Of a stretch of DNA of 51,156 nucleotides, positions 10,587-43,025 are shown piece by piece. The stretch covers positions 1-51,156 of the forward strand of contig JBGSMV010000045.1 in assembly GCA_041739995.1 (NCBI GenBank), read 5' to 3'. This DNA comes from Bdellovibrionota bacterium. Lineage in GTDB: Bacteria; Bdellovibrionota_C; UBA2361; JBGSMV01. The notes under the pieces are model-generated. The model worked only from the letters and a program-made list of their open reading frames with translations. It was not told the origin of the DNA and made no database searches. A program made the translations under genes and the position numbers. The stretch's first letter is position 1. Each line of letters opens with the position of its first letter.

Positions 10587-10764
10587 CTCCTAACCCATTT
10601 CGTCAGCGGCTTCGTGGGCCCATCCCCTCAGGGACCTTGGGGGCACCGGGGGGAGCTCTAACCCGCTGATTCGGGAGCCACTTTTGAGTGGTTCTAAGCC
10701 CCGCAACTTTTCGCTCAATTCTCCGAGTATCTCTCCATTGAACTGAATTTCTTTGGAGGACGAT

Positions 10765-11226
10765 ATGCCTAATACAAGTGAACTGCTCTCGAAGCCATCG
10801 ACCGAAACGCTTTGCTCTACGCCCGAGAGTTGGGAGCGCATCCGCAGCAAAGTAGGGTTTCTCGATAGGCTGGTGGAAAGCGGGGAGAGCGCTGAAGAAA
10901 TCGAAATCGATGTGCGTGCCTTAGCCGATCTATTCGCACCAATATTCTGTGACTGGATGCGCAAGAGCGACTTCCCAGAATTTAAGGGAATAGATCCAGA
11001 ATCACATTGGATGGCTGCGCACGCCTTCGTGTGCTTTACCTACCTCGGTGAGCATCCGCGCAGAGCGTCCCTTTTTAAAGTACCGAAGACGTTTGATAGA
11101 CGCTTCTTAGACCTGATGGGTGAAGAGCTGGGCATATCCGATGCTATGTTTCGTGCGATATTACAGGTTTCAGTAGATCTTGTGCGAAAGTTCATTGTGG
11201 AGGTTCATTCGGATCGTGGACATTAA
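10765..11226 (+). CDS. Hypothetical 153-aa protein
   Basis: GGAGG at 10755-10759 precedes the ATG at 10765 (the ORF track starts at TTG 10753). The ORF fills the gap up to the convergent receptor gene. Confidence 0.65.
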   Translation: MPNTSELLSKPSTETLCSTPESWERIRSKVGFLDRLVESGESAEEIEIDVRALADLFAPIFCDWMRKSDFPEFKGIDPESHWMAAHAFVCFTYLGEHPRRASLFKVPKTFDRRFLDLMGEELGISDAMFRAILQVSVDLVRKFIVEVHSDRGH

Positions 11227-11241
11227 TGCGACTCTCTTTGA

Positions 11242-13401
11242 CTAGAAGGTCCCGCGCACCCCAACCAAAAAGGCGCGCCCACGTAGTGGAGCCAGATCTT
11301 TCAGGAATGACGAATGCACGCGAGCTTCCTCGTTGGTCAGATTCGTGGCGCGCAGAAACACACGAGGCCTTTCCTCGGAGCTTTTGGAGGGCAGGATGGT
11401 TGGCGTATAGCCAAGCTCAGCGTTGAACATGGTGTAGCCATCTGTGGTTGTTTCAAAGTCAGAGACCCGATCTTGTTCGCTTACGAATACCGCCTCTAGT
11501 GATGAGTCAAATTGACTCCCTAAGAGATATTCTGCTCGAACGATATTTCGAAGCGGTGGAATACGCGCGAGCGGGTCGTCGGCGCTCTCATTTCTAGCTC
11601 TTAAAAAATCTAGCTGATAATGCAGTAAGAGCTCATCGCGAGAAAGGTTGAGTAGCCGATTGAGATGAAGTGTAGAACTGAATTCGAATCCTATGAAAAG
11701 CGCCTCTACTGACTGGTAATCGTAGACAGGAAGGTCGTCGATGAATTCATCGGTTGCGGAGAGATCTATATACTCAGAGAAATGCTGTATGAATGGCGTC
11801 ACCGCGCCGGTGATGAGGCCAGTATTTTTTCTAAAAGCCAAATCTGCGCCCCATGACTTCTCGATCGACAGGTTAGAGTCGCCGACTTCGAAAATTTGTC
11901 GCGCCAGATGGGGTCCGAAGGCGAAGAGCTCAGTCGCACTTGGTGCACGCTCGGTGCGTGCGAGGGAGAGAGCAACAGAGTAGGAGGCGTCTTGGCCGAA
12001 GTCCCAAACAGGCCCTAAAGAAATGCTATAGGGAACAAAGGACTGAGAATCGGCATTGAGGGGATCTCTATGCACAAATTCAACGCGGCCACCAAGTTCA
12101 AGTCTCAAATCTTTCAAAAGTGAGGCTTTCTCAAATACGAAGAGCGCAGGAGTTGTTGATCTCGTAGGTTCTAGGTACACCTCTTCACCAGTCGCAGAGA
12201 AGTCATCGTAGGTAAACTGGACTCCCCAAGAACCGTTCAGAGCGCCCAGGGGAGACTTAAATGGGCGGTGGACTAATTCGAAACGACTCTCAAAGGTGTT
12301 GCGCTCAAAGCGAGTGCTTACTTCGCCATTCTCGATTTCACTGTGTCTGTAGCGAGTAACGGCGGCCTCGACCTGGGTAGCTTCCACAAGCTCTGAAACA
12401 TTATTAACTCTTCCACGTAAGGCTAAGCGTAGGCTTTTGGCATCGATGCGGACGCTTTCCTCTTCCTCCGAATCGTGATCAGCCTCTTGATGATCGGCCT
12501 CCATGTGGTCCTCGGTATGCTCTTCTGTATGCGCATGGCCGGGAATTCCGTAGTCAGAATCAAGGGCATTGAGCGAAAGCCCAAAGAAGCCTTGATCCCA
12601 AATGTAGGAGCTCCCCACTGTAGCGCCATAGGTCTCAGAACTTGTATTGGGAACTTTCCCCTTAATCTCGTCTTCATCCGAATGATCGCCGTCTTCGGAC
12701 TCAGACTCGCGAAGCTGTGAAGACTCAGCAAATCCGGGAATGCGATAGTCATTCGTAGAGCGATAGAAGCCAGAAGTGCGCACCGTCACAGAGCCTTCGG
12801 GAGTGCGGTTAAGTTCCCCAAGGAAGCTCGCTCCCACGGAGCGCTCATCGTCAGCGTTTGAACCAACGGCGCCGAATATTTCGGTTTCAAAGGGTGAAGG
12901 GAGGAAATTCTCGGGAATATCTTTGCCAACAACGTTTACCGATCCGCCAATGCTCGAGTTTCCGTATCGCAGGCTCTCCGGTCCGCGAACTAGCTCGATG
13001 GCGTCGGCCTGAGACGGGTCGGCGCTCACTAGATGGTCTTCGCTGATCTCTGAGACATCACCGGTGCCAAGCCCGTCTGTCATTACCTTGAGGCGGTCTC
13101 CTGAGAAACCTCGAACAATGGGACGGCTGGCGCCTGGACCGAAGAAGGAGCTGCGTACTCCAGGCTCTAGTTCAAGGGTCTCGCCAAGAGTCGCGGAGAG
13201 ACGGCGCTCTAAGTCTCGTCTATCGAGCACTTCAGCAGCTCTCCCAAATGAGAGGGCGCCGCCACTAGGCGCAGGAGCTTTCACAATGATGGTGGTGACT
13301 TCTGTAGGTTCGGCTGGCGGATCTTCTGCAAGCGCGTGCTCAGCCAACAATATGGGCAGTAATGAGGCCCAACACAAGAATGACGTAGCTCGATATCCCA
13401 T
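11242..13401 (-). CDS. TonB-dependent receptor, ZnuD-like zinc uptake family
   Basis: Signal peptide; plug motifs TLGETLELEPGV, GPGASRPIVRG and IELVRGPESLRYG; His/acid-rich loop (GHAHTEEHTEDHMEADHQEADHD); C-terminal NLTNEEARVHSSFLKDLAPLRGR...GTF. The start was moved to ATG 13401 because the upstream in-frame codons lie within the operator palindrome. Confidence 0.9.
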   Translation of the reverse strand: MGYRATSFLCWASLLPILLAEHALAEDPPAEPTEVTTIIVKAPAPSGGALSFGRAAEVLDRRDLERRLSATLGETLELEPGVRSSFFGPGASRPIVRGFSGDRLKVMTDGLGTGDVSEISEDHLVSADPSQADAIELVRGPESLRYGNSSIGGSVNVVGKDIPENFLPSPFETEIFGAVGSNADDERSVGASFLGELNRTPEGSVTVRTSGFYRSTNDYRIPGFAESSQLRESESEDGDHSDEDEIKGKVPNTSSETYGATVGSSYIWDQGFFGLSLNALDSDYGIPGHAHTEEHTEDHMEADHQEADHDSEEEESVRIDAKSLRLALRGRVNNVSELVEATQVEAAVTRYRHSEIENGEVSTRFERNTFESRFELVHRPFKSPLGALNGSWGVQFTYDDFSATGEEVYLEPTRSTTPALFVFEKASLLKDLRLELGGRVEFVHRDPLNADSQSFVPYSISLGPVWDFGQDASYSVALSLARTERAPSATELFAFGPHLARQIFEVGDSNLSIEKSWGADLAFRKNTGLITGAVTPFIQHFSEYIDLSATDEFIDDLPVYDYQSVEALFIGFEFSSTLHLNRLLNLSRDELLLHYQLDFLRARNESADDPLARIPPLRNIVRAEYLLGSQFDSSLEAVFVSEQDRVSDFETTTDGYTMFNAELGYTPTILPSKSSEERPRVFLRATNLTNEEARVHSSFLKDLAPLRGRAFLVGVRGTF

Positions 13402-30061: not shown

Positions 30062-31837
30062 GTGATCGTCTCTTCTCATTCCAAACTGTACTTGCGCGCG
30101 CTGGTGTGCGTGCTTATTGGCGCTGTTTTGTGGCTTTGGTATCCAGTGGTCTCCCCCTCAGCCTCACCAGTAACAGTGACTCACATGGGGTCAACCGAAC
30201 GAGCTGAGCTCCCCTTTCGCACCGAGAGTGTGTCCCAGGCGCGCTACGCGCTGAGTTTTCGTATGTCGCATAGCGCAGCTTCTGCCACCCGCTACAATCT
30301 TTGGGCGGATGATTGCCTCGAGCATGTGGTAGTGAACGGAGTGTCGCTCTCGCGCTATCCTCTCCCACTATGCGATTGGGGGAAGAGTTTTGAGTTCGAT
30401 CTCTCCTCAGTTCTTAAAGACGGGCAGAACGATTTCACCATTATAATTTCGAATCATCCAGGCAACGGGGGATTTCACCTCGCTCCGTCTTTCTTCGATT
30501 CACGGGTTCTCTCGTTTCGAATAACCACCTGCGTGTTCATTCTTTGGCTCACCTGGATCGCCACGGGTGGTCTGATTCGCTACCCACTCACGCGGGCATC
30601 ACTGTTGCTAGGTGTTTTTCTTCGCTTATTTTACTTTTACGTGACTCCCGCGCGAGTTCGGTCCCATGATTTTGAAGGACACCTTGAATTTATCTATTTT
30701 ATCGCAACGCATCTCCAGCTACCGCCCGCATCTCAGGGGTGGGAGTTTCACCAGCCACCGCTGTATTATCTGTTCACCGGAGGAGTCCTCCACCTACTTC
30801 AGAGTGTCGGATCTTCAGCGTCTGAGGTGCTGAGCTACCTGCAACTATTTTCCCTGGTATGCGCGATTTGCACCCTCTTTGTTGGTGTCAAAATTGGGGA
30901 AATTGTGTTCGGAGAGCGGAGTCGGGAACTTCCGCTGCTCGCCTATAGCTTGATCCTCTCGACCTTGCCTAGTCTAGTCTTCTCAAGCACGCGAGTGTCC
31001 AATGACGTGCTCTTCCACCTCTTCGCGTTCACATGGATGTTGGCTATTGTCAGGTGGTGGTACAAGCCCACCAGGCTCGCATGGCTACCCGTACTGGCGC
31101 TGCTCATGCTGTTGTGCGTTACCAAAGCGACTGCCGCGCCGCTGATCGCGAGTACCTTGGTCCTGTCGCTCTTGCGACCTCAGGTTTCCCGCTCACACAG
31201 AATCCTCGCTTTCACCTCGGGAGCTTTAGTCTCTGCTCTCACCGTCGGCAGCCTATGGCTATATCGTAGCGCCGTAGAGGCCGCGCCGTCCCTCTTCGAT
31301 AAGGGGCAGACGCTGCACAGCGCACTCCGAGTGGGGAACGGTCTCGCCAATTTCCTGCATTTCAATCTTAGGGATGTTCTCATCACTCCATTCAACAATC
31401 CTTGGGGCGACGAGGCTGGGCGACAACATTTCTGGGAGTTCCTGTTTCGGTCGATTTTTTTTGGCGAATTTCAATATGCGCCTGAAATCGAGGGGCTGGC
31501 GAGCTGCATTCTTCTGTTCGGATTCCTCTGGATTGTGTTCGCACTATGGGGCTTTGCTTGCGCCGGCACTGCCAAGGAATTCTCGTTCGTTCCACTGGCG
31601 GTTGTCGGCCTCTCTCTACTGGGCGCTTTGATAACGTTTCGAGTTTGGTATCCCTTTGCGGTTCATCAGGATTTTAGATTCATTCACCTCCTGGGCGTCC
31701 CATTGGCAGCTTTTCCTTCCATGTGTCGCCCACCTTCAAGGGCTTTAACAATCGGATTAGCCACGCTGACTGGCACGTTAGCCCTACTATTGATCCTCTT
31801 TCTCCTGCTGCTCCTCGATAATTTCGCGCCGCTCTAG
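30062..31837 (+). CDS. GT-C fold (ArnT/PMT, GT39-like) membrane glycosyltransferase with an N-terminal beta-sandwich
   Basis: Many TM helices; HDFEGH, GWEFHQPPLYY, SNDVL and TKAT. The N-terminal ADDCLEHVVVNG...LKDGQN segment resembles a carbohydrate-binding sandwich. Confidence 0.7.
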   Translation: MIVSSHSKLYLRALVCVLIGAVLWLWYPVVSPSASPVTVTHMGSTERAELPFRTESVSQARYALSFRMSHSAASATRYNLWADDCLEHVVVNGVSLSRYPLPLCDWGKSFEFDLSSVLKDGQNDFTIIISNHPGNGGFHLAPSFFDSRVLSFRITTCVFILWLTWIATGGLIRYPLTRASLLLGVFLRLFYFYVTPARVRSHDFEGHLEFIYFIATHLQLPPASQGWEFHQPPLYYLFTGGVLHLLQSVGSSASEVLSYLQLFSLVCAICTLFVGVKIGEIVFGERSRELPLLAYSLILSTLPSLVFSSTRVSNDVLFHLFAFTWMLAIVRWWYKPTRLAWLPVLALLMLLCVTKATAAPLIASTLVLSLLRPQVSRSHRILAFTSGALVSALTVGSLWLYRSAVEAAPSLFDKGQTLHSALRVGNGLANFLHFNLRDVLITPFNNPWGDEAGRQHFWEFLFRSIFFGEFQYAPEIEGLASCILLFGFLWIVFALWGFACAGTAKEFSFVPLAVVGLSLLGALITFRVWYPFAVHQDFRFIHLLGVPLAAFPSMCRPPSRALTIGLATLTGTLALLLILFLLLLLDNFAPL

Positions 31838-31924: not shown

Positions 31925-32348
31925 GCGTTACATTCAGCCTATTGAGCGGAACTTCGCCCTTCGCCGTCATCCGCGTTCGTCAGAGCGCGTTCGTCAGAGT
32001 TTGATCCTTCTCAACCAGGTTTGATGTGCAGACGTGCGGCGCCAATACATTAGGCCGTGGGAGTGCGGGCACAGCTTAGCGAGCTGTCGCTTTCTCACAC
32101 TCTCGTGGGTGACGACCTGGCGCCAAATTTCCTGCTCTCTGCCGACTATCTTGGTCAGCAGAGAGTGGGGGGTGTTTTTTGGTTTTTCGTAATCCCCATC
32201 TCTTCTTAATGTGCGCGATCGTTTCGCGCGCATTGGTTTCTCAACACGGCACTCTCAAGTCAATTGAGTGCCTCACCATTTTCCCATGGAGATACGTTAC
32301 GTACCTCCAAGTGAAACACATACGGCAAAAAAGCCGGGGAGTACATCA

Positions 32349-33389
32349 ATGCGGTTTTTCCTCTCTCTTGCAGTGACCATCGGTCTTCTTCAGAGTTCGG
32401 TTTTCGCGCGGTTTGTGGGCACGGACCAGGCCTACTCGGCGGAGCAAGTGGTCGGGGCAAACGGGCGAGCGTTCTTGGCCAGAGATCTTGCCGAAGACGG
32501 TACCGTTTCGGGCAGCATCGATGGATCCCCCGCCTTGTGGTCTTCCGTCGACGGTCCTCGTTCACTCGCCACCGGAGAAAACGCCACGCTCAAGGGGGCA
32601 GGCATGAAAGTCGCCAAGACGAGCGCCGGTCACACCACACTGGTGCAGGTGTCTGTCTCATCCCAGGCACCGCGGGAGTGGCGCGTATTGGAGATCAACT
32701 CACGGGGACAAGTGACTGATAGGTCAGTCGTTGTGAACCCCAAGGGGCCGGTGCGAGCCTTGGATCTTCGGGGCATGGATGAGACGGGCAGCGTCCTTGG
32801 CAACATGATGTTCAAGGAAGGCAGCTCGCCGACTTACATCGGACCGGCGAAGTTCACGCGCGGCACAATCTCGAAAGTAGCTCCACCGAAAGAGATGAAC
32901 GGTGCGCTTCTTGACTCTTCTGGTCAGTGGAGCTGCGGCATTCTGGTTCTTCGAGCCAATGCAGCAGCCAAGGAACAAGCCGCGGTGTGCAAACCTTCCG
33001 GCCAATGGGTCCTAGTCACTGATGGCCAGAAGGACGTGACTGAGTCGAGCGCCTCCGCCATCTCGTCATCGGGCGAGACAGTGGGAAGTTTCATAAAGGC
33101 CGGAAAGGTCTATCCGTTTCTTTGGTCGCCTTCTGAGGGGGGCGCCTTCGTCCAGCTTGGCGAATCCAGCGGTGAAGCGCTGGACATCAACGACTCTGGG
33201 ACGATTGTCGGTCACCTTGGAGACAAAGCGATGCTCTACGATCGCAGCCAGAATCGGTGGATTGAAATCGACTCTCTGACCAACGCTAAAGACCTCCGCT
33301 TCAGGTCGGCTCTGTCTATCAATGCCAAGGGCCAAATCTTGGCGCTCAGCAGCGACGGCGTGTACTACGTGCTCACGCCAGGGAAGTGA
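32349..33389 (+). CDS. Secreted HAF-repeat-like (beta-repeat) protein
   Basis: Signal peptide MRFFLSLAVTIGLLQSSVFA and repeats ASAISSSGETVG, ALDINDSGTIVG and ALSINAKGQIL. GGGGAG upstream of ATG 32349. Confidence 0.75.
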   Translation: MRFFLSLAVTIGLLQSSVFARFVGTDQAYSAEQVVGANGRAFLARDLAEDGTVSGSIDGSPALWSSVDGPRSLATGENATLKGAGMKVAKTSAGHTTLVQVSVSSQAPREWRVLEINSRGQVTDRSVVVNPKGPVRALDLRGMDETGSVLGNMMFKEGSSPTYIGPAKFTRGTISKVAPPKEMNGALLDSSGQWSCGILVLRANAAAKEQAAVCKPSGQWVLVTDGQKDVTESSASAISSSGETVGSFIKAGKVYPFLWSPSEGGAFVQLGESSGEALDINDSGTIVGHLGDKAMLYDRSQNRWIEIDSLTNAKDLRFRSALSINAKGQILALSSDGVYYVLTPGK

Positions 33390-33421
33390 TCAGTGTCGGG
33401 CGTCGCATGGGATAACACATC

Positions 33422-33495
33422 ATCGAGAGGGGGGGGGTAATCAGCGCTCAGGGTTTACTCGAAATAAGGTTGCCACTTCACCCCCCCCTCTCGAT
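33422..33495. repeat. Inverted repeat with homopolymer arms
   Basis: ATCGAGA-G9 ... C8-TCTCGAT, separated by about 43 nt, just downstream of the HAF-repeat gene. Confidence 0.65.
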
Positions 33496-33861
33496 TCTCA
33501 CCTCATTGAATCGATGTGCAGTTCCTTCTTACGCTCTATCAGACTCGTCAGAGGTCCCTTCCGCGGGGGGCTTTCTCACAAACTCAAAGCCACACGCCCG
33601 CGCAGGGTCGTTTCGCGGAGTTACGCTCAGCCCCACCTGTCGGTTGGGCATCCTGGTCTATCTGGTGGGGCCATGAAAAGACTTGTTTCCGGTCCTGCTA
33701 TAGATCCTTAACTTGCTTCCAAGGAATGATGGCAGTATAAGGCACCGAGAATGAGGCGCGGTCATTCATGCCTCAGTAGATCTTTCTCTTCCTCGTCCTG
33801 AGTAGTGCGTGTATACGTTTGTTCTCCGAAGGTTTTGCGATTCACCTCGCCCTTACACTAC

Positions 33862-33891
33862 ATTTATTTCCGAACAATTTATTTCCGAACA
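33862..33891. repeat. Perfect 15-bp tandem duplication
   Basis: ATTTATTTCCGAACA occurs twice. A third partial copy, TTCCGAAC, lies at 33899-33906. Confidence 0.8.
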
Positions 33892-34188
33892 GCACCGCTT
33901 CCGAACCGCTTCGTTTGCATACAACGCTGGGTTTCTGATCAGCCTAGTATTTGGATACGAAGTTTCAATTCAAACCTGAGCTCTATTCAAACTCAGCCTA
34001 TCAGAGTCAGACTGAGCCTCACGGCAACTCCATCGATTGCGTTCGCGCAAGATGGTTTCGCAAGCGATTGTTCAGATCGAATCGGCAATTAACGTTAGCA
34101 CGTCACTTCCGAGGAGCTTGCGTGAAAAGCCGGATTGCGTGGTCTGCCAAGCAGCTTTCGTACTCCACTTAACTAGGGAGCACACGGT

Positions 34189-37100
34189 ATGATTAGAAGT
34201 TTGCCACTATATTTGTCGTTCTCCTTCCAGTGCGCTCGGAATTCTCGGGGGCCTCAGCCTTCTTTGGCGCTACTGTGCGTCCGAGCATTGCCTCTCTTCG
34301 CTTTTCTGCTGACCTCACTCGCGACGGTGGTAGTTGATGCCAAGGCTCAAGGCGCTCGCCTCGCAGCCAGCGATGACAATGTCCAATTTTCGAATGGTGT
34401 CCTGCGGCATCATCGTTACGACGACATCGATCTGTACACTCGAAGTTTACACGGAATTTCTTATGCAGTTGGGCCAGTCGAGCTACAGTATAATGAGAGT
34501 TATCCTGACACAGGCGGGTACTTTCACGACCGTGCCGGCAATTTTGATCTAAAGTCGGTCAACTTTGAACAAGGAATCGTTGTCGGTCTTCCCCGCGTAT
34601 ACGCGAATTGGATCTACGACGGAGTTCTTCGCTATCGTCTTGGTCCTACTCGCCCATCGGGAAGCCAAGGGGGATACGGAGATTATCAGTTCCAAACGCT
34701 AATCTCGAGTGGGCGCTATGTCGCGATTGATATTGGGTTTCCCGATGCCCAACTGCACGACACGGAACTTGGACTCAACTATCATCTCAGACTTCATGAC
34801 GTCGACGGCTCCTGGATTCCGTATGAGATAGTGACCGAGAGCGGTCACGTCGTTGAGGTGACTTGGAACGAAACTCTCTCACAGCATGGACTCCCGCTTC
34901 CCGCTTCGTTTCGTCTCAGCATGGGAGGTATTGAATTAGAGAGGCTAGAGCTCTCCTACACTACCTCAGGTCCTCGCCCACGCCTTACGTCAATCAATTC
35001 TTTTCTTAACGGCCAATTTGCCGCGTGGCGTAGTGTCTGGCTTGGCTACTTGAGCTCAGGGCATCAACCGGAATTTATCCTGAATCGTTTGTTTCTTGGG
35101 GCCAATGGTAGCGGCCCGTTGCAGCCAAATTTAGTTCCCAGCGGTTTACGCCTCTCCTATGGCACCGCGGGAAATAAAGATATTTTGCTCCGACTCAATA
35201 ACTATCAGAACAAGCAGCTAAAGGAGTTTCTCCTCTCTGAGGTTCCGGTTCCTCCGTTCAATCTGGTTCGAACTGTGTACTCTGGCATTCGAATCGGAGG
35301 CCCCACTCGAGCGCCGACTACACTCGTCTATCAGCTTAGCGGTCCAAGCGGTCAAGACCGCAGTGCCATCGTGACCTCACCGCTCAGACCTAACGATCCT
35401 CTGACCATGGATCTAGACAGCGAGATTGGGACGTTAGTGCGGATGTCGCGCGCTTCCTGTCCTAACCCCCTTTACCAGGCCACTTATTCAAACGGAGGTC
35501 CCTCATCCGGATATCTCGAAAGCGAGCAGCTGCGTCATGAATGTGATAAACTCCTCACTCGAACTTTCGTATACTCACCGCAGGGGTTCTTGGAGGGTAT
35601 CGAAACAGTCGGTGTCGGGTCTGACGGTCAGCCCCTCACTCGTTCATTTTCAATGGCTACCCGTTCAACGCTTACCGCCAGCGGCACGCGAAGCTATCGA
35701 CTCACCGAGACTACCGATACGTTTGGGCGCTCGATGAGTTGGGACTATGACGATAAGGGTCGCATGACCGAGGAATGGTCAAGCGAACCCGGAGATAACA
35801 TACAAACCCATTACTCATTTTGGGATAGTGCCGGCACCCAGGTACAGAGCGTCGTGCACACGTTTGAAAACGCTCGACAGTCCGAGGCGCTGTTTTCTCA
35901 GGCTGGGCTACTTCTGCAAACCTCTGAGGCGGCAAACACACCGGACGAGGTCACTCAGTCCTATTTGTACGACCCCATGCTCCGCGCGCAAGCATTAGTG
36001 GACTACCGAGGGAACCAGACGACTCTGTCCTACGATGAGAACGGCAACCTAGAGCGCCTTGCCCTTATTCCAAGTGGTGGAGAAGAGCACGTCACTACTA
36101 CCTATAGCTTCCACCCGGACTTCCCCCAAACGGTGCGTCGCGTCGACATCGAATGGGAAAAGGGCGGACTCCATCAGTCGGGATTCTCGGAACTGACTTT
36201 CCTGAGCGATACGCCTGTAGCGACCAAGCAAGTTCTTGGTGGTTCGTCTACTACTCCGCTTACTGCCTGGAGCACTGAGTTTGATCCTTCCACACTACGA
36301 CTCACGCGCTATTGCATGCGACCAGATTTCTCAAGCAATAGTGGGTGTCAAAACTTCAACTTTCGTGCGGACGGGGTGTTTGCGGGACTTCCGCACTACG
36401 TGGACTATGCGGGCGGACTCTCCTCGGGCGGGTATCGCAGGACCTTCCTGTATGGCGCCTTCACCGATTTGATCGGCTCGCGGGTGCAGGATCAGGCGCT
36501 AGATTATTCCACCTATCGCACCTTCGATGATTTCGGCCGTCTGCGACAAGCGCAGTCGATTCCCGCTAGTGGCAGCCCAGAGCTGCTTGAGTATCGCTTC
36601 GACGCGAATGACCGCTTGGTCGGACAAAGGAAGTTCATCGGCGGGATCCTTACTTCGGACCTGCAACAAGAATTTTTACTGAATGGCGCGTCAGATCGTC
36701 CGGCTCGCTTCGAGGATTTAGTATCTGAGCTGCGCACAACCTACGAATATGCTGACAGTTTCGGACGACTCACACGAGCGCGAACAACTATCGGCGACTC
36801 GCGCCTACAAGAAGATTTCTTTGTCGATGCGGGTTCGTTCGATAGCTTCAATCGACCGCGGACTTTTTCAAGGTTCGTCGATGGGGCTGGCTCTTTGACC
36901 TGGCAGGCAAACTGGAACACTTTGGGAGATCTCGTCTCTCGCTCTGACGAGCGCGGGAATCCAACTATATTTGAGTACGATTCGTTCGGGCGAATGACGC
37001 ACCAACTCACTCCCTTGTTCGATATTGCGGTAGTCTACGGTATATCCAGCAACGGACGATTCATTCGTACAATTTCGACCGAGCGCACCACCAATTCGAG

Positions 37101-38508
37101 TTTACGCACGCCACATACGACGGAAGCCGCTCTCGATGCGATCGGCAGAGTTTCCGCACTGCGTGATGAGACCCGCGGACTGGTCCGCACCTATACCCAT
37201 GGGGCGCGTGGTTTAGTCGAATCCGCCCTTCTGGAATACCCGGACGAAGATTCTAGAATTATCCAGCAAGACTATGATTCGTTTGACCGTGAAGTCTCTC
37301 GATCAATAAATGGTGTGCCTTTATTTTCGCGAGAATATTCAGGCGTTGGCCTCTTGCTCGCCCTGCAAGATTCTCGACAAGAACGAACAGAACTCTCGTA
37401 TGATGGCATGGGGCGTCGCTCCGCAATCTCCTATCCTGATGGGTCTCGGCTCTCTTATGAAGCTCCCGTGTTCTTTTACCCGGCCTTGCCGAACGGCAGC
37501 GTTCTAAGGACGCGTTGGAACGATCGTGGGGGTTCCACCGTAACCGCGGAGTTCGATACGTTTGGGCAGCCAGTGTTGTTTTCCGCTTCGTCCGGGCCGC
37601 TGGGATCTGCCTCACGCCTGTATAGCTACGATGCGCTCAGGCCGATTGCGATATACTCGCAACAGGCCGACGGAGCCTCCGCACTTCTTTCCTACGAGTA
37701 TGATTCCCTCGGCAGGCCTGTTGGGGAGTCCTCCTCCGTATCATCGAGCACCTATCAAGAGGCCTACACATTGGGGAAGGACTACGATCAGTTCGGAAGA
37801 CTCGTACGTTACGACTATCCGACGACTCCGCCAACGCGCGTCGATTACCTCCGTGACCAATTCGGAAGGGTGCGCGAAGTTCGCGTGAATGACGCCCCGA
37901 TTCAGACCTCAATCTTCGATGGCCCGGTGCTCGTGGGAGAGACCCTGGGCGAGGTGCTGCGGTTGTTCGAGTACGATTCCAGCACGGGCGAGCTGGCCAG
38001 GGCTCGTGACACCGTTGGCTCCAGCACCCTCTCAGATCTTCGCTTTGACTATAGTGCGGCTGGCCGATTGACAGTGCGCGACGACTTCGGATTGCGCCGA
38101 GGAGCCCTTCCCTCGACCCATGAAACTTTCAGATACAATGATCTTGGAATGCTTGAGGAGCACCACGCTATCCAGCCAAGAGGAAGGTCAGGCAGCCGTC
38201 TCTTCTACCCCGAAGCAGACGGAGTCTTGGGGCTCATTCCAAATGCTAATGAGATGTTCGAGCTCACCTCGCTCTTCTCATATGACGCATTCGGCAACCC
38301 AACTCATAGCACCACTGGAAACTTCCAGTTCCAATGGTCACCACTTGGCCTACGCACCCTCTCCCGACCAAGCGTCTCTGCACTCTTCGCACAAGACGCA
38401 ATTGGTCGGAACGTGCTGCACCAAAAGGTCGGCACCTTCAGTTCTACCCAAACCACCCAAGTTCGGGATCGTGGCATGGTTCTCTATCAACGTGAGACCT
38501 TGGAATAG
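34189..38508 (+). CDS. Rhs/YD-repeat shell protein lacking the Rhs-associated core and toxin
   Basis: Many YD/xDxxGR repeats (YDDKGR, YDENGNL, FDDFGRL, YDSFGRM, YDSLGRP, YDQFGRL, YDAFGN). The N-terminal hydrophobic segment ends in AKA-Q. No DPxG motif at the end. Confidence 0.9.
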   Translation: MIRSLPLYLSFSFQCARNSRGPQPSLALLCVRALPLFAFLLTSLATVVVDAKAQGARLAASDDNVQFSNGVLRHHRYDDIDLYTRSLHGISYAVGPVELQYNESYPDTGGYFHDRAGNFDLKSVNFEQGIVVGLPRVYANWIYDGVLRYRLGPTRPSGSQGGYGDYQFQTLISSGRYVAIDIGFPDAQLHDTELGLNYHLRLHDVDGSWIPYEIVTESGHVVEVTWNETLSQHGLPLPASFRLSMGGIELERLELSYTTSGPRPRLTSINSFLNGQFAAWRSVWLGYLSSGHQPEFILNRLFLGANGSGPLQPNLVPSGLRLSYGTAGNKDILLRLNNYQNKQLKEFLLSEVPVPPFNLVRTVYSGIRIGGPTRAPTTLVYQLSGPSGQDRSAIVTSPLRPNDPLTMDLDSEIGTLVRMSRASCPNPLYQATYSNGGPSSGYLESEQLRHECDKLLTRTFVYSPQGFLEGIETVGVGSDGQPLTRSFSMATRSTLTASGTRSYRLTETTDTFGRSMSWDYDDKGRMTEEWSSEPGDNIQTHYSFWDSAGTQVQSVVHTFENARQSEALFSQAGLLLQTSEAANTPDEVTQSYLYDPMLRAQALVDYRGNQTTLSYDENGNLERLALIPSGGEEHVTTTYSFHPDFPQTVRRVDIEWEKGGLHQSGFSELTFLSDTPVATKQVLGGSSTTPLTAWSTEFDPSTLRLTRYCMRPDFSSNSGCQNFNFRADGVFAGLPHYVDYAGGLSSGGYRRTFLYGAFTDLIGSRVQDQALDYSTYRTFDDFGRLRQAQSIPASGSPELLEYRFDANDRLVGQRKFIGGILTSDLQQEFLLNGASDRPARFEDLVSELRTTYEYADSFGRLTRARTTIGDSRLQEDFFVDAGSFDSFNRPRTFSRFVDGAGSLTWQANWNTLGDLVSRSDERGNPTIFEYDSFGRMTHQLTPLFDIAVVYGISSNGRFIRTISTERTTNSSLRTPHTTEAALDAIGRVSALRDETRGLVRTYTHGARGLVESALLEYPDEDSRIIQQDYDSFDREVSRSINGVPLFSREYSGVGLLLALQDSRQERTELSYDGMGRRSAISYPDGSRLSYEAPVFFYPALPNGSVLRTRWNDRGGSTVTAEFDTFGQPVLFSASSGPLGSASRLYSYDALRPIAIYSQQADGASALLSYEYDSLGRPVGESSSVSSSTYQEAYTLGKDYDQFGRLVRYDYPTTPPTRVDYLRDQFGRVREVRVNDAPIQTSIFDGPVLVGETLGEVLRLFEYDSSTGELARARDTVGSSTLSDLRFDYSAAGRLTVRDDFGLRRGALPSTHETFRYNDLGMLEEHHAIQPRGRSGSRLFYPEADGVLGLIPNANEMFELTSLFSYDAFGNPTHSTTGNFQFQWSPLGLRTLSRPSVSALFAQDAIGRNVLHQKVGTFSSTQTTQVRDRGMVLYQRETLE

Positions 38509-38520
38509 AAGGAGCACTCT

Positions 38521-41175
38521 ATGAAACACTTAATCGCAGTTATGAAATACTTCCTTCAGGCTCCTGTCTTCATCGCGACGATCGCCACAATGATCCTCGG
38601 GCTGCTTCTTGGCACAGCCTCTCATTCGCATGCGTGGACTCCAGTTGAGATTCCGGTCGCTGTAGATACGGTGACAATACTAAACTACAGCCCAATTAAG
38701 CGGCCAAAGAGTACGATTACCGTATACCAACCCGATACTGGCGCTCCGCTCGTGAGCTATATTGAATATGGTTCGGGGTCGAATCGACAGCACTACGGCT
38801 TTTTGCACCTTATCGATCCGAACAGTAATACCTCTTTGCTACTCCGAGAGTCGTCAACTGGTATAAATATTCCGCTTTACTATCAGGAAGCATTCCCCTC
38901 CCAGGTCGTACTCTCTCCGCAGCATGCGAGATATGCAGCACTTATCCCAGCTCTTGGAATTGGGGCGTTGGTGTGCGACTCGGAACTGCAATCTTGCATC
39001 ACCGACTATCGTCTCTACGATGCTCGCTCAGTTTCATCTGGTGGCTCACTGCGATTTCTTTCCCCCGATCCACTCGGCACATGGGTGAGTCAAAACCAGT
39101 ATCAGTATGCGACCGAGACCGATATCAACCCGCTGCAATCAGTCGATCCCACCGGCTTGCAACCAGACGACCCAGACAGTCGAGCTCAGGCCCGAGAGCG
39201 TGCAAGAGAGAGACAACGAAACGCGGAGCATGAAGCAGCCAACCAACGACTTCAAGAGAGTTATGGGGGCAACTCCTCGTTCTGGAACACTGTCCGGTTT
39301 ACGATTGCCGAGGTAAGTCCCGGGCTTGGAATGTACGTTGCTCGCGACTATACAACATTCTCGGCGGCTGCTCGCGGGGAAACGGATATCATGGGAAGTT
39401 ACGCACAGGCGCGAAACGGCGCCTTGCTCGACGCGGTTACGGCCCCAATCGGCGCAGGCTCGACTAAGCTGATCGCTGGAACGATCGAAAGACAGGTAGT
39501 AGGGGAAGTTCTTGAAGGAGCCAGCCGCCAAGTTGCGAGAGAGGTTACTCAGGCCGTTGGCAGAAACGGGGCGCGCCATCTTGATGCGGATGGCATTGCG
39601 AGAATGGGAGAGCGTCTCTCCGATAGCGGCGTTTCCTATCGCGGCACGCAGTACGGTCCTAATAATTTCAATGCAGATAACGCAATTGACTCGCTGCAGG
39701 GCAGTCGAAAGGATCTCACCGATGGAGTCAATTGGAACAGGAATGGCAACACGGACCCCATGCCTGATTACTTTACCGGAGGGCAGCAGCAAGACCTAGT
39801 CAGGAACGGCTCGCCGGATCTTAGATTTTCAACTACCAACCCGCAGGTTGGAGTTAAGTATACCGGGGGGCATGGCGGTCTTGAAGTCCTTCCTGGGACA
39901 AATGCGATGCAGATGGTTCCCAAGAATCCAAATTTTGGGCACGGCACACTTACTGTCGGACGCCAATTCGATGATATGCGAGCGATTTCTGACACAGTAT
40001 CGCGCGATGCCGAACAGGTCTCTCGTGGCTTTCATCAGTTTGGAAGCTTCCTTGATTCTGGATATCGCAGGGTTGGTTCAGAGACGGAAATGTGGGCAAG
40101 GAACTTCAGGCCAAACAGATTCGATCCTACCGGTAGGGAAATAGCGCGTCAGATGAACTGGGGGAACAATTTCAACAATCTCGCCGCAGGACTCGGGGGA
40201 CTCACGGCTCAGCAGTTAGGGAACCAGCTGAACGATGTAGCAGCCGACAACCTTTATGCACAACCTCCGGGCACGACTACCGGAAGTAGCTCAAGTAGCA
40301 GCTCCAGCAATTCATCTTCCCAGAGCTCTAGTAATTCGAGCGAATCGTCTTCAAGCAACTCGAGCTCGACGAGCAGCAATTCGAGCAATAGCGATTCCAG
40401 CAATAGCAACTCCAGTCAAAGCAGCCAAAGTTCTGACTCCTCCCAAAGTTCTTCCGAGTCCTCTAACTCCTCAGAAAGCTCCTCATCATCGAATAGTTCG
40501 AGCAGTTCCAGCTCCTCAGGTAGTTCAAGTTCCTCATCGAGCGATTCAAGTAGTAGCAGTGAGTCATCGTCAAGTGATTCTAGCGACAGTTCTGCGAGTT
40601 CCGATTCGAACGGAAGCAGCTCTGGGGGGAGCAACTCGGGTGGTAGCAGCTCCGGTGGCAGCAACTCAGGCGGCAGTAGTTCTGGCGGAAGCAGCTCTGG
40701 CGGAAGCAGTTCGGGTTCAAGCTCCTCGGAGAGCAGCTCCCCCGGTTCGAGTAGTTCATCGAGTAGCGTATCAAGCAGCTCTTCGAGTAGCTCAAGCTCC
40801 GCGTCATCAAGTAGCTCGTCATCAGAGTCGAGTAGCGCGTCATCCAGCTCTACTCCTAGCTCCTCGAGTGTAAGTTCGTCCAGTTCCGCGAGCTCCTCCG
40901 ATTCGAGCCATAGCCACTCCGAGAGTAGTCAAAGTTCCTCATATAGCGGGGGGTGTCCTCTCGCAGCTCAGTACCGATGCATAGAGTGCTTTGAATCGGT
41001 CGGGGCTGCATCTTTCGCATCAGGCTCAGAGGTTTCGGAGGCTCAGAGCCTCGCCACCGAGGACACAGAACGAGCTGGCATCTTGGATGATATTCGAGAG
41101 TGGATCTTCCCGTCTCAACCAAGCTGCGCCTCTCTGCGTTCAATGTGTTGCCATTGCTGGGGGATGGGCTGTTAG
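38521..41175 (+). CDS. Signal peptide + Rhs-associated core + ADP-ribosyltransferase-like domain + poly-Ser linker + Cys-rich tail
   Basis: AAGGAG RBS; signal peptide ending SHSHA-W; core motif RFLSPDPLG...NQYQYA...NPLQSVDPTGL; then YRG, FSTTN and ETE motifs; a Ser tract of about 220 aa; C-terminal CxxC and CCxC motifs. Confidence 0.8.
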   Translation: MKHLIAVMKYFLQAPVFIATIATMILGLLLGTASHSHAWTPVEIPVAVDTVTILNYSPIKRPKSTITVYQPDTGAPLVSYIEYGSGSNRQHYGFLHLIDPNSNTSLLLRESSTGINIPLYYQEAFPSQVVLSPQHARYAALIPALGIGALVCDSELQSCITDYRLYDARSVSSGGSLRFLSPDPLGTWVSQNQYQYATETDINPLQSVDPTGLQPDDPDSRAQARERARERQRNAEHEAANQRLQESYGGNSSFWNTVRFTIAEVSPGLGMYVARDYTTFSAAARGETDIMGSYAQARNGALLDAVTAPIGAGSTKLIAGTIERQVVGEVLEGASRQVAREVTQAVGRNGARHLDADGIARMGERLSDSGVSYRGTQYGPNNFNADNAIDSLQGSRKDLTDGVNWNRNGNTDPMPDYFTGGQQQDLVRNGSPDLRFSTTNPQVGVKYTGGHGGLEVLPGTNAMQMVPKNPNFGHGTLTVGRQFDDMRAISDTVSRDAEQVSRGFHQFGSFLDSGYRRVGSETEMWARNFRPNRFDPTGREIARQMNWGNNFNNLAAGLGGLTAQQLGNQLNDVAADNLYAQPPGTTTGSSSSSSSSNSSSQSSSNSSESSSSNSSSTSSNSSNSDSSNSNSSQSSQSSDSSQSSSESSNSSESSSSSNSSSSSSSSGSSSSSSSDSSSSSESSSSDSSDSSASSDSNGSSSGGSNSGGSSSGGSNSGGSSSGGSSSGGSSSGSSSSESSSPGSSSSSSSVSSSSSSSSSSASSSSSSSESSSASSSSTPSSSSVSSSSSASSSDSSHSHSESSQSSSYSGGCPLAAQYRCIECFESVGAASFASGSEVSEAQSLATEDTERAGILDDIREWIFPSQPSCASLRSMCCHCWGMGC

Positions 41176-41507
41176 CTTCTAGAGGTAACTTCAAAGGGCT
41201 CCGAGGCACATAAAGTATCGACGCACGGTAGAGCCATCGAAAATGCTTGCTGCCGCCATCTGACGCAAGACGCTCAGGCAGATACCAGTGCTGGTTCCCG
41301 TCCCTCGCTGTAATGCGAGTAGATGATTTATAGATTCCTAATGTAGGAGATGGGGACAAAGGGACGGCACTGCCCAAGAATAATGTAACCAGCGAGGCTG
41401 AGAGAGAGTGTGTGTGAAGCTCGCGCCCGTCGAGCCTCGAAGGGCGGAGAAAGTCCCACAAACGGGACTTTCTGAAGTTCGTTAAAGGAGTATTCGAAAA
41501 ACGCGCA

Positions 41508-42284
41508 CTAAAAAACGTTGCTCGCCTTCGCGAGTGAATCGCAGAACGCAAGTTTGTCACTAAGTCCAGAAAGTATGTTCTGCACTTCTGGTGAGGCACC
41601 AAGGATAGGAAGCGTTCGTTGATGTCTATCAGTCAACTGCTGCACCAGGCGTGGGATCCATCCTCTCGAAAAAGATGAAACCGAAGCTGGGTCAATCTCA
41701 GAACAATCGAGAACAAGGAAAGCACCCCTCCGAGAGAGATAGACCAGATCACTAAATGTGTGCTCAATGTCGTTCGTTCCTAGTGATTCCGGTCTGAGAA
41801 GAGTCTCCGCAATCACGGAGTTGCCTGCTTGAATGGTAAGGTCTACGAACCTAAAGTAGCGTGTAGCACGGTTGACTTCGCCTGACGCAACGCCCACATT
41901 TGCCGATACCATTGGGTTGTCGACGGCCACCAACTCGGTGTTGGGGAAGCGTTCGTCATCAGCGTCTTTGATACCAGTCTTCCGGGATGAACTTCGAGGG
42001 GAACTTCGGGATGGGAAGGTCTCGGCTCCCTCTCGTGGGCGAAGGATTTCTCCAATCAGTGTTGGTCGCACCTCGCCGAGCGCTGCTGCATGAGAGCGCT
42101 CTTCGGCAGAAGCGCCATTCCAGAGTCGAACCCGCGCACATGCTCGGCGATAGATTCCCGGATCCTCACCGGGGGCTACCAAGTAGGGAAGCTTAACCAT
42201 CCGGAGCTCGCCCAACGGCTCGCTCCGTCTAGATTCGCTCCGTCTAGATATTGGACCCGTGTCCCCTATGTGAAATGGCCACAT
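41508..42284 (-). CDS. Hypothetical protein with a C-terminal STAS (anti-sigma antagonist)-like domain
   Basis: LVLDCSEIDPASVSS...LPILGASPEVQNIL resembles the STAS pattern LD.S.v..idSs...l.g.sp.v..il. AGGAG before ATG 42284. Confidence 0.5.
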   Translation of the reverse strand: MWPFHIGDTGPISRRSESRRSEPLGELRMVKLPYLVAPGEDPGIYRRACARVRLWNGASAEERSHAAALGEVRPTLIGEILRPREGAETFPSRSSPRSSSRKTGIKDADDERFPNTELVAVDNPMVSANVGVASGEVNRATRYFRFVDLTIQAGNSVIAETLLRPESLGTNDIEHTFSDLVYLSRRGAFLVLDCSEIDPASVSSFSRGWIPRLVQQLTDRHQRTLPILGASPEVQNILSGLSDKLAFCDSLAKASNVF

Positions 42285-42476
42285 ACCAGCTCCTGACTTC
42301 TTATTTGCGCCAAAGGATACCACGCCGCCCGGTGGTACTAAAGCATATAGATTCAATTCGTTAGGACCGATGTCCGGTCGACCATGCGCGTCACAATGCG
42401 TTTTGGCATATCTGCTCTTGAGTCGGAGAGGCTACTTCAAAACTAACCGAGGATCTCTTTTCGCTTCAAATCGGGG

Positions 42477-42889
42477 CTAAATCGCCGCCACTCCATGGGG
42501 AAGCGTGGGCACCTGTGAAGTAATCTCTTGGAGCGACGAGAGCATTTTCTCTGCGCTCTGAACTCGCCTCTCAGGATCTCGGTCCATCGACCTCATGGTC
42601 GCTCTCGCAGGGGACTCAGGGCGCGCTCACCTCTCAGTAGGCGGGGAGACGCGGGTGGGTGCCGCAGTCTTCCCTCAAGGGCATCACGTACGCTCTTCGC
42701 CTGAAACGGTCCTGCGCCGGTGAGCATCTCGTATCCGAGGCACCCGAGGGTGTAGAGGTCGTCGCGCCGGTAAAGGCGTCCTTCGGTCAAGTACGCCTGC
42801 GCGGCATAATCGAGGGAGCCAAAAGAAGGTGATTGCCCTTCGTCTACTCGTAGGGATTCTCTCGAGAAGACACTCTCCGATCGACACAC
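42477..42889 (-). pseudogene. Frameshifted, truncated Ser/Thr kinase remnant (C-lobe)
   Basis: FGSLDYAAQAY...DDLYTLGCLGYEMLTGAGPF (subdomains VIII-IX) in one frame. After a shift near 42610, MRSMDRDPERRVQSAEKMLSSL (subdomain XI) follows in another frame. No N-lobe, HRD or DFG seen. Confidence 0.75.
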
Positions 42890-43025
42890 GACTCATGTTC
42901 TTTGCGCTGACGCTTGCTCCGAAAGCACATCTGAGGTGGATGCTTGCGCGGGAATATCGATTTTACATCGCCGCCTCGCATTTCAGTGCTCGCAGAGCTC
43001 GAGGTGCTGTTGGTATACTAGGAGC

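Follow-up and report, generated by a model that had tools for sequence, protein, structure and literature searches.

A two-gene Rhs locus in a Bdellovibrionota genome in which shell and core proteins each carry an export-type N-terminus

The 51,156-base contig JBGSMV010000045.1 of a Bdellovibrionota bacterium (assembly GCA_041739995.1), analyzed here in its entirety and referred to below as the window, contains an Rhs system encoded by two adjacent genes. Gene 1 encodes a YD-repeat (Rhs) shell subunit that extends to the conserved turn ahead of the Rhs core. Gene 2, as judged from its sequence, encodes what that shell is missing, namely the last shell strands with the plug and autoprotease core, together with a second export signal in front and a large polymorphic C-terminal part behind. 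The same division is seen in two related loci, and we consider it probable, if well short of certain, that the pair constitutes a two-subunit Rhs cocoon system kept by selection in this Bdellovibrionota-type diderm genome, for which we infer export of both chains and closure of the cocoon in trans. The genome comprises 3.8 Mb in 81 contigs with a completeness rating of 91%, and a genome scan found only one Rhs-type locus in it.

Layout of the locus and conservation of the split

Table 1 Coordinates of the two genes, the junction between them and the parts of their products in the window
Feature	Position	Strand	Remarks
Gene 1, YD-repeat (Rhs) shell subunit	34189..38508	+	open reading frame (ORF) of 1439 amino acids (aa); TAG stop 38506-38508
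Shell signal-like segment, residues 26-54	34264..34350	+	17-residue uncharged run, then AKA|Q
Junction	38509..38520	+	12 nucleotides (nt), AAGGAGCACTCT; Shine-Dalgarno-like AAGGAG at 38509-38514, 6 nt 5' of the ATG
Gene 2, core and C-terminal part	38521..41175	+	ORF of 884 aa
Gene 2 signal-like N-terminus, residues 1-38	38521..38634	+	K2, K9, hydrophobic run, SHA|W
Rhs core, predicted plug and aspartyl autoprotease, residues 39-213	38635..39159	+	weak match to TIGR03696; collinear with single-chain Rhs
Middle region, residues 214-579	39160..40257	+	366 aa; charged helical stretch, then a domain of unknown fold
Ser-rich low-complexity spacer, residues 580-810	40258..40950	+	161 Ser in 231 residues
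Cys-rich tail, residues 811-884, and stop	40951..41175	+	8 Cys in the last 120 residues

A preliminary description of the window, made from its sequence, had reported gene 1 as a YD-repeat shell that ends before the Rhs core, and this was borne out by matches to PF05593 and TIGR01643 and by collinearity with single-chain Rhs proteins. Its coordinates, AAGGAG ribosome-binding site, 12-nt gap and gene 2 N-terminal sequence all proved correct when the ORFs and sequence were checked, and the DPTGL motif that it placed at 39145-39159 corresponds to gene 2 residues 209-213. Gene 2 shares the reading frame of gene 1, with one TAG and four codons between the two (an open frame of 888 aa). Read-through at window positions 38506-38520 would give a fused chain with a hydrophobic segment inside. 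Contigs from two of four public runs (X1 record 3 and X2 record 6) bridge positions 38506-38523 without a difference, as one would wish of a genuine junction; all four runs come from one study that is possibly the source of the assembly, and their contigs add little. A promoter and terminator scan of positions 33300-42000 gave sites no more numerous than in shuffled sequence.

The split recurs in two other loci. In G001, a metagenome-assembled genome (MAG) of Bdellovibrionota from the same genus, a 1428-aa shell is followed by a 1099-aa core protein, P0004, whose GTG start overlaps the TGA stop of the shell (GTGA), with GAGGAGG 6 nt before the GTG. On the metagenome contig L048 a 1411-aa shell is followed by TAG, 4 nt and the ATG of the 1205-aa core protein P0006 (gene at 8521-12138). 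The core regions of the relatives are 38-45% identical to that of gene 2, and all three shells end at a homologous position a few residues past a conserved W/R-D/E-x-G-M-x-L motif. The junctions, in contrast, differ in stop codon, spacing and frame, the second gene being in frame in the window and in other frames in G001 and L048. Because the fission point is common to three loci while the junctions have diverged, the sequence comparison rules out that the split arose by a recent nonsense mutation or through faulty assembly. The in-frame placement in the window is probably due to chance, since the two related loci are out of frame. By the same comparison the split is genuine and maintained by selection, and shell and core are the sole genes common to the three loci. 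The argument of the preliminary description that the ribosome-binding site and signal peptide speak against a simple nonsense mutation is thereby strengthened, all three loci with context being split at a homologous position by different junctions. It had also raised the prospect that close homologs might all be single-chain proteins; they are not, as G001 and L048 carry the same split.

A phmmer search with gene 2 residues 1-260 against 1,835,955,588 representatives returned three matches at E <= 0.001: the query, P0005 (1008 aa) and P0006. The core occupies residues 36-174 of P0005 and 59-207 of P0006, directly after a hydrophobic N-terminus in both, and no single-chain protein reached E <= 0.001 in that search. 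Within the phylum, 2 of 124 genomes gave a match at E <= 1e-5, both of them from the genus of the window. By these sequence matches the family has branched off from single-chain Rhs as a small and divergent group. In the single-chain protein P0008 (1735 aa), residue 1441 is the counterpart of gene 1 residue 1412, and residues 1581-1614 are aligned with gene 2 residues 178-213. As both align consecutively to P0008, the two genes are, at the level of alignment, collinear with one Rhs chain, the mature gene 2 product resuming about where gene 1 stops, and the signal-like segment and a short linker are the extra material at the fission point.

Shell, core, export-type N-termini and C-terminal part

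Gene 1 matches the RHS_repeat family PF05593 at E 2.5e-31 (107.9 bits; cut-off 22) and TIGR01643 at E 9.7e-24 (82.9 bits; cut-off 15.8), and the G001 and L048 shells likewise pass the YD-repeat cut-offs. It is 35% identical to the G001 shell over 1421 aa and 30% identical to the L048 shell over 1148 aa. Beyond these two, the proteins closest to it are conventional single-chain Rhs chains 1624-2480 aa long, with 22-27% identity. Note that word-based homology searches were insensitive here, as they returned the query or distant single-chain Rhs proteins and missed the G001 and L048 proteins. An alternative start of gene 1, TTG at 34264, is possible. A Pfam search of gene 1 gave no SpvB or beta-propeller match, no PDB sequence matched it at E <= 0.01, and the N-terminal cleavage motif PVxxxxGE was found in none of the three shells.

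A model of shell residues 50-650 was all beta-hairpin, with a mean predicted local distance difference test score (pLDDT) of 59.9, and its Foldseek matches were Rhs, teneurin and BC shells (E ~1e-12) with a template-modeling (TM) score of <=0.24 and a root-mean-square deviation of ~30 angstroms. The N-terminal half of the shell thus looks, from a globally poor model, like further shell rather than a separate propeller or lectin. The C-terminal half reached a pLDDT of 82-84 in the co-fold described below. Each mature shell has exactly four cysteines, which are invariant in the three shells (C424/C452 and C709/C720 in gene 1 numbering) at a shell identity of merely 28-35%. These cysteines would fit disulfides formed in an oxidizing compartment and give an independent hint of location.

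The core of gene 2 is alignable with four canonical cores over approximately residues 60-213, and over residues 160-213 it matches the last two thirds of the Rhs_assc_core profile TIGR03696 (positions 27/32-76 of 76). There was no Pfam match to gene 2; weak sequence matches of the core to 7pq5 and 8h8b were seen. The aspartates D183 (39067-39069) and D209 (39145-39147) and the glycine G212 are invariant in all eight aligned cores. The two aspartates are 26 residues apart in gene 2, against 23 in the canonical cores aligned with it and likewise 23 in TccC3, whose catalytic pair is D651 and D674; TccC3 is cut between L678 and M679, and its G677 is conserved (10.1101/590430). The predicted catalytic dyad is intact, and from its sequence the gene 2 core looks active.

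Export signals were assessed by heuristics and conservation rather than by a trained predictor, an approach that does not distinguish a cleaved peptide from an anchor. On these heuristics the three shells and the four core proteins (counting P0005, known as a protein alone) are all positive: every member begins with positive charge, continues with 15-33 uncharged hydrophobic residues and then has small residues at -3/-1. No lipobox was seen in the family N-termini. The claim of the preliminary description that each chain has a signal peptide of its own therefore stands insofar as signal-like N-termini, be they cleaved or anchoring, are present on all shells and cores. The maximum 15-residue hydropathy within the 200 residues before the core motif is 2.63 in gene 2 of the window and 2.01-2.83 across the four family members. 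In the single-chain homologs the same measure is 0.85-1.52 (five of ten, those in which the motif was located; that of P0010 is possibly not a true core), and the hydrophobic segment is not present in the equivalent region of those five proteins.

The contact between shell and core was modeled by co-folding shell residues 640-1439, its C-terminal 800, with residues 39-215 of gene 2 on alignments of our own with eight rows. The co-fold score was 0.83 (median of three runs) versus 0.00 for the best of three controls, with at least 72% contact agreement among the runs and a partner pLDDT of at least 68. The mark applied is reached by 116 of 157 solved complexes and by 2 of 215 mismatched pairs, rates that are approximate for own alignments. 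The most confident contacts join shell residues 1431-1434 to gene 2 residues 65-69; those on the gene 2 side comprise residues 60-72 plus further stretches up to residue 204. Since shell 1431-1434 contacts gene 2 65-69, the model supports a beta sheet that continues across the fission point, the last shell strand pairing with the first strand of mature gene 2. The preliminary description had asked whether the core caps the gene 1 barrel, and the prediction fits this in that it passes its controls and places the core on the end of the modeled C-terminal half of the shell.

The four core proteins are conserved as far as the D..G motif and no further, and they differ in what follows it. By sequence, a conserved N-terminal part followed by a C-terminus that varies from the core motif on is the classical polymorphic pattern. 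The parts behind the motif measure 671, 887, 834 and 1000 aa in the four proteins (68.6-106.4 kDa). Each consists of a variable middle region (366, 388, 427 and 402 aa), a low-complexity spacer that starts at residue 580, 601, 602 or 608, and a C-terminal module. The spacer is Ser-rich in the window, Gly-rich in G001 and Thr/Pro-rich in P0005 and P0006. The G001 spacer (L008 ~11807-12919) has 235 Gly in 371 residues and takes the same position as the Ser tract of the window. The window protein and P0004 have a Cys-rich tail as their C-terminal module, P0004 also having a C..C..C cluster directly behind its spacer; in P0005 the module consists of repeats. The middle regions of the window protein and P0004 are homologous (34% identity over 584 aa) and those of P0005 and P0006 are unrelated. 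The near-constant length of the middle region over unrelated sequences might be one hint that it is sized to a cavity.

Cocoon cavities of ~25,000 cubic angstroms (type VI secretion system (T6SS) Rhs) and ~37,000 cubic angstroms (BC), and Rhs toxins of up to 38 kDa, have been reported (10.1101/2024.02.26.582050). Because 68.6-106.4 kDa exceeds these cavity and toxin sizes, the C-terminal part cannot be enclosed as a whole. The preliminary description had envisaged one shell taking interchangeable core-toxin cartridges. Instead, there is one core gene per genome in the window genome and in G001, and it is between lineages that the cargo varies.

Pfam, NCBIfam and PDB profile searches of the post-core parts gave nothing above threshold, the sole weak match being fn3 in P0005 (E 0.064), and an AlphaFold2 model of gene 2 residues 214-600 was unusable (pLDDT 34.7). 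Two cargo candidates from the ESM Atlas were set aside. DUF4237/TNT for the window protein (0.86-0.88) was not used, as shuffled proteins reach a first match of >=0.8 one third of the time, and the zinc peptidase clusters for P0006 (0.75-0.81) had chance-level scores. The variable middle region of P0006 has an HExxH motif (HEVAH) at approximately residues 400-460; it is a single motif that could be due to chance, and on this sequence the region could be a metallopeptidase cargo.

Core matches were also surveyed at 113 loci, some of which duplicate one contig (L015/L064 and L031/L091). An in-frame stop lay fewer than 400 codons upstream of the RFxxxDP motif in 44 loci and further upstream in 38, and the frame was open to the locus start in 31. 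N-termini were judged by eye in 27 of the 44 short-frame loci. Among these 27, it was only in L009 (the G001 contig) and L048 that a shell of at least 1400 aa ran up to the start of a core gene with a signal-like N-terminus. Another six (L029, L031, L043, L052, L017 and L094) have a signal-like N-terminus and core with no adjacent shell, so the statement of the preliminary description that orphan rhs-CT modules lack signal peptides does not hold generally. The remaining inspected loci had the appearance of orphan or frame-shifted fragments and lacked signal-like N-termini.

The shell-less core proteins are of 350-525 aa (L029:9440-10861, L031 with the same layout, L052:130-1707, L017:697-1749, L094 ~4934-5254 and L043 from 1789) and come from Verrucomicrobiota-type and other MAGs or metagenome contigs. 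In L029, where CstA lies upstream, the mature N-terminus opens with a TVY.P motif as in the split family. L019 (7894-9249 and 9233 onward) and L095 (517-1458 and 1508 onward) hold broken Rhs genes in overlapping or adjacent frames, with a core that lacks a signal-like N-terminus. Both are Rhs genes of the ordinary kind that have been shifted in frame or truncated, and they contrast with the split family.

The surroundings of the window locus offered few clues. The upstream neighbors (30062-31837 and 32268-33389) have no Pfam match and are not conserved beside the related Rhs loci; they include a 591-aa protein with many hydrophobic segments and a polytopic-membrane look and a 373-aa protein with a signal-like N-terminus. 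Downstream, positions 41176-42935 (~1.7 kb) contain only doubtful minus-strand ORFs of 248 and 282 aa with no Pfam match, one of them overlapping the end of gene 2, and no immunity-like gene was recognized downstream of gene 2 in the window. Among the three loci no conserved neighbor was fit to be an immunity gene or a secretion partner. The preliminary description had noted that no PAAR gene is near the locus, and this extends to the 91%-complete genome, in which no PAAR, T6SS sheath (VipB) or SpvB was found.

Assembly of the two chains and competing explanations

Assembly outside the cytoplasm, after separate export of two chains, is what we infer from this arrangement. Both chains would cross the inner membrane via Sec, separately and unfolded, and the shell would fold in the periplasm or beyond, where the two conserved cysteine pairs may stabilize it. 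The mature gene 2 N-terminus would then add onto the last shell strand and close the cocoon, after which the core may cut behind DPTGL (after L213). The spacer and C-terminal module would most likely lie outside, as a tether, adhesion or anchor arm, because most of the C-terminal part cannot fit into the cocoon.

Several observations weigh against this account of a two-subunit cocoon. The family is tiny, being composed of three loci and one further protein, P0005. The TIGR03696 score of gene 2 (24.9 bits, or 27.9 in the genome scan) is under the curated 32.5. The P and L of DPxGL vary, the motif being DPAGT in P0005 and DSRGL in P0006. Such variants need not mean inactivity, by analogy with TccC3, since cleavage of that protein did not require a strict recognition sequence (10.1101/590430). 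The 33-residue h-region of gene 2 is long and could be an uncleaved membrane anchor. The co-fold drew on shallow alignments of eight rows and covered no more of the shell than its C-terminal 800 residues, and it may have passed because the two parts resemble Rhs structures that have been solved as single chains. Finally, no route across the outer membrane was identified, and no secretion component is conserved beside the genes.

A more ambitious version of the two-subunit cocoon, which we consider rather unlikely, has a reusable shell and a plug-and-cargo subunit joined in trans after Sec, with the middle region as enclosed payload and the spacer threading out to the external module.

In another alternative the complex is the same, but the gene 2 segment is an uncleaved inner-membrane anchor onto which the shell docks in the periplasm, with an envelope role such as sensing or regulation, like that of Bd0109, and no released toxin. 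This could account for the length of the uncharged runs (33 residues in gene 2 of the window, 26 in P0005), as well as for the lack of a conserved outer-membrane secretion component alongside and of a conserved downstream immunity-like gene. The YD-repeat protein Bd0109 reportedly interacts with Bd0108 and has been connected with the regulation of pili (PMC3818213). However, small residues stand at -3/-1 behind the hydrophobic run in each protein, the h-regions of the G001 protein and P0006 have the 15-17 residues typical of signal peptides, and the long spacers and repeat-like C-terminal modules resemble those of surface or extracellular proteins. We hold this reading to be unlikely.

It is distinctly unlikely that the two genes are co-transcribed without forming a joint cocoon, gene 2 encoding a secreted signal-plus-core protein independent of the shell and the shell acting alone. 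Precedent for such a core protein comes from the six signal-like, shell-less loci among the 27 inspected, including L029 with CstA upstream, but shell and core genes adjoin in all three loci with context. Moreover, the gene pair is collinear with single-chain Rhs, the shell lacks its closing plug, and in the co-fold, which passes its controls, strand contacts strand precisely where the chain is divided.

Stop-codon read-through or translational coupling could in principle yield one fused chain, and thus a functionally ordinary Rhs protein, in the window organism, as the in-frame TAG and the merely four codons between the genes might suggest. This is very unlikely: the other loci are out of frame (the GTGA overlap in G001; TAG plus 4 nt in L048), an in-frame arrangement arises by chance in one of three cases, and the fused chain would hold an internal hydrophobic segment. 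Barely credible is the view that a normal single-chain Rhs gene has recently suffered a nonsense mutation, is a pseudogene, or was wrongly assembled or sequenced. In its favor, gene 2 is in frame with a single TAG between, and Rhs genes are often broken, as in L019 and L095, where YD ORFs lie directly upstream of a core frame that lacks a signal-like N-terminus. Against it, three loci of 28-45% protein identity stop at a homologous place with stop, spacing and frame all different; all three are provided with a start codon, a ribosome-binding-like site and a hydrophobic N-terminus; their ORFs of 884-1439 aa are intact; and contigs of two runs cross the junction unchanged.

Comparison with known systems

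To our knowledge TcB-TcC is the only known two-chain cocoon, and in it TcC contributes a large share of the shell. The present system resembles TcB-TcC, a cocoon of two polypeptides from adjacent genes whose second chain has a two-Asp autoprotease, cutting behind the DPxGL-type motif, and a variable C-terminus (10.1101/590430; 10.1101/2024.02.26.582050). In contrast to TcB-TcC, the fission lies just before the core, which would leave gene 2 to add no more than the final strands and the plug. Export-type N-termini stand on both chains, and the part behind the cleavage site is of 671-1000 aa with a low-complexity spacer. Unlike Tc BC, gene 1 has no SpvB or beta-propeller by Pfam, and there is no SpvB in the genome.

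Like Sec-dependent single-chain toxins of the Rhs/WapA type, the pair combines a signal-like N-terminus with YD repeats, a core and a C-terminus that varies, and RHS repeats are listed among the polymorphic toxins exported by Sec and the type II secretion system in Table 1 of Zhang et al. 2012 (PMC3482391). Those toxins have one chain and one signal, whereas here there are two chains, each with a signal-like segment, and no conserved downstream immunity gene was found. With T6SS Rhs effectors (RhsA, Tse5, RhsP, Tse15 and Tre23) the system has in common a DPxGL-type core and, as modeled, the beta-hairpin type of shell, these being the best Foldseek matches (E ~1e-12). It differs from them in its signal peptides (by heuristics), in the absence of PAAR and sheath genes from the genome and in the absence of PVxxxxGE from the shells. 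It departs from canonical Rhs toxins in general in having two ORFs rather than one chain in all three loci and a cargo above ~38 kDa.

Teneurins and bacterial teneurin-like YD proteins, which are also among the Foldseek matches, have an extracellular YD shell with C-terminal domains outside it, as the split family probably does. Teneurins are single chains, however, and the residues conserved around the cleavage site of toxin-type RHS proteins are, according to 10.1101/590430, not conserved in teneurins, whereas both Asp and the Gly are invariant in the split family. Bd0109/Bd0108 of Bdellovibrio bacteriovorus is comparable in that it combines a YD-repeat protein of a related predator group with a second protein and has a proposed non-toxin role (PMC3818213). 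Its partner Bd0108 is small and not an Rhs core, a distinction drawn from the description rather than from sequence.

A full-text literature search, with subscription papers outside its scope and papers represented in part, turned up no Rhs protein split before the core with a second signal peptide, which is no proof that such a split is unpublished. What the comparison brings out is a probable two-chain Rhs cocoon that differs from TcB-TcC in where the chain is divided and in its two export-type signals. With their excess size and their spacers, the C-terminal parts point to a tethered surface device more than to a classical enclosed toxin.

In current models the Rhs shell folds round its toxin as one chain in the producer cytoplasm, and co-translational encapsulation has been argued for Rhs (10.1101/2024.02.26.582050). 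If the two-subunit cocoon is real, a cocoon could be closed in trans outside the cytoplasm, which bears on how Sec-dependent Rhs proteins fold, on how payloads are loaded and on the loading of shells with foreign cargos. If, in addition, the payload is indeed supplied in trans, Rhs encapsulation would proceed without co-translational folding of a single chain, and the pair would represent a modular delivery device independent of a secretion system. The split described here would give the Rhs cocoon a second natural fission point beside that of TcB-TcC.

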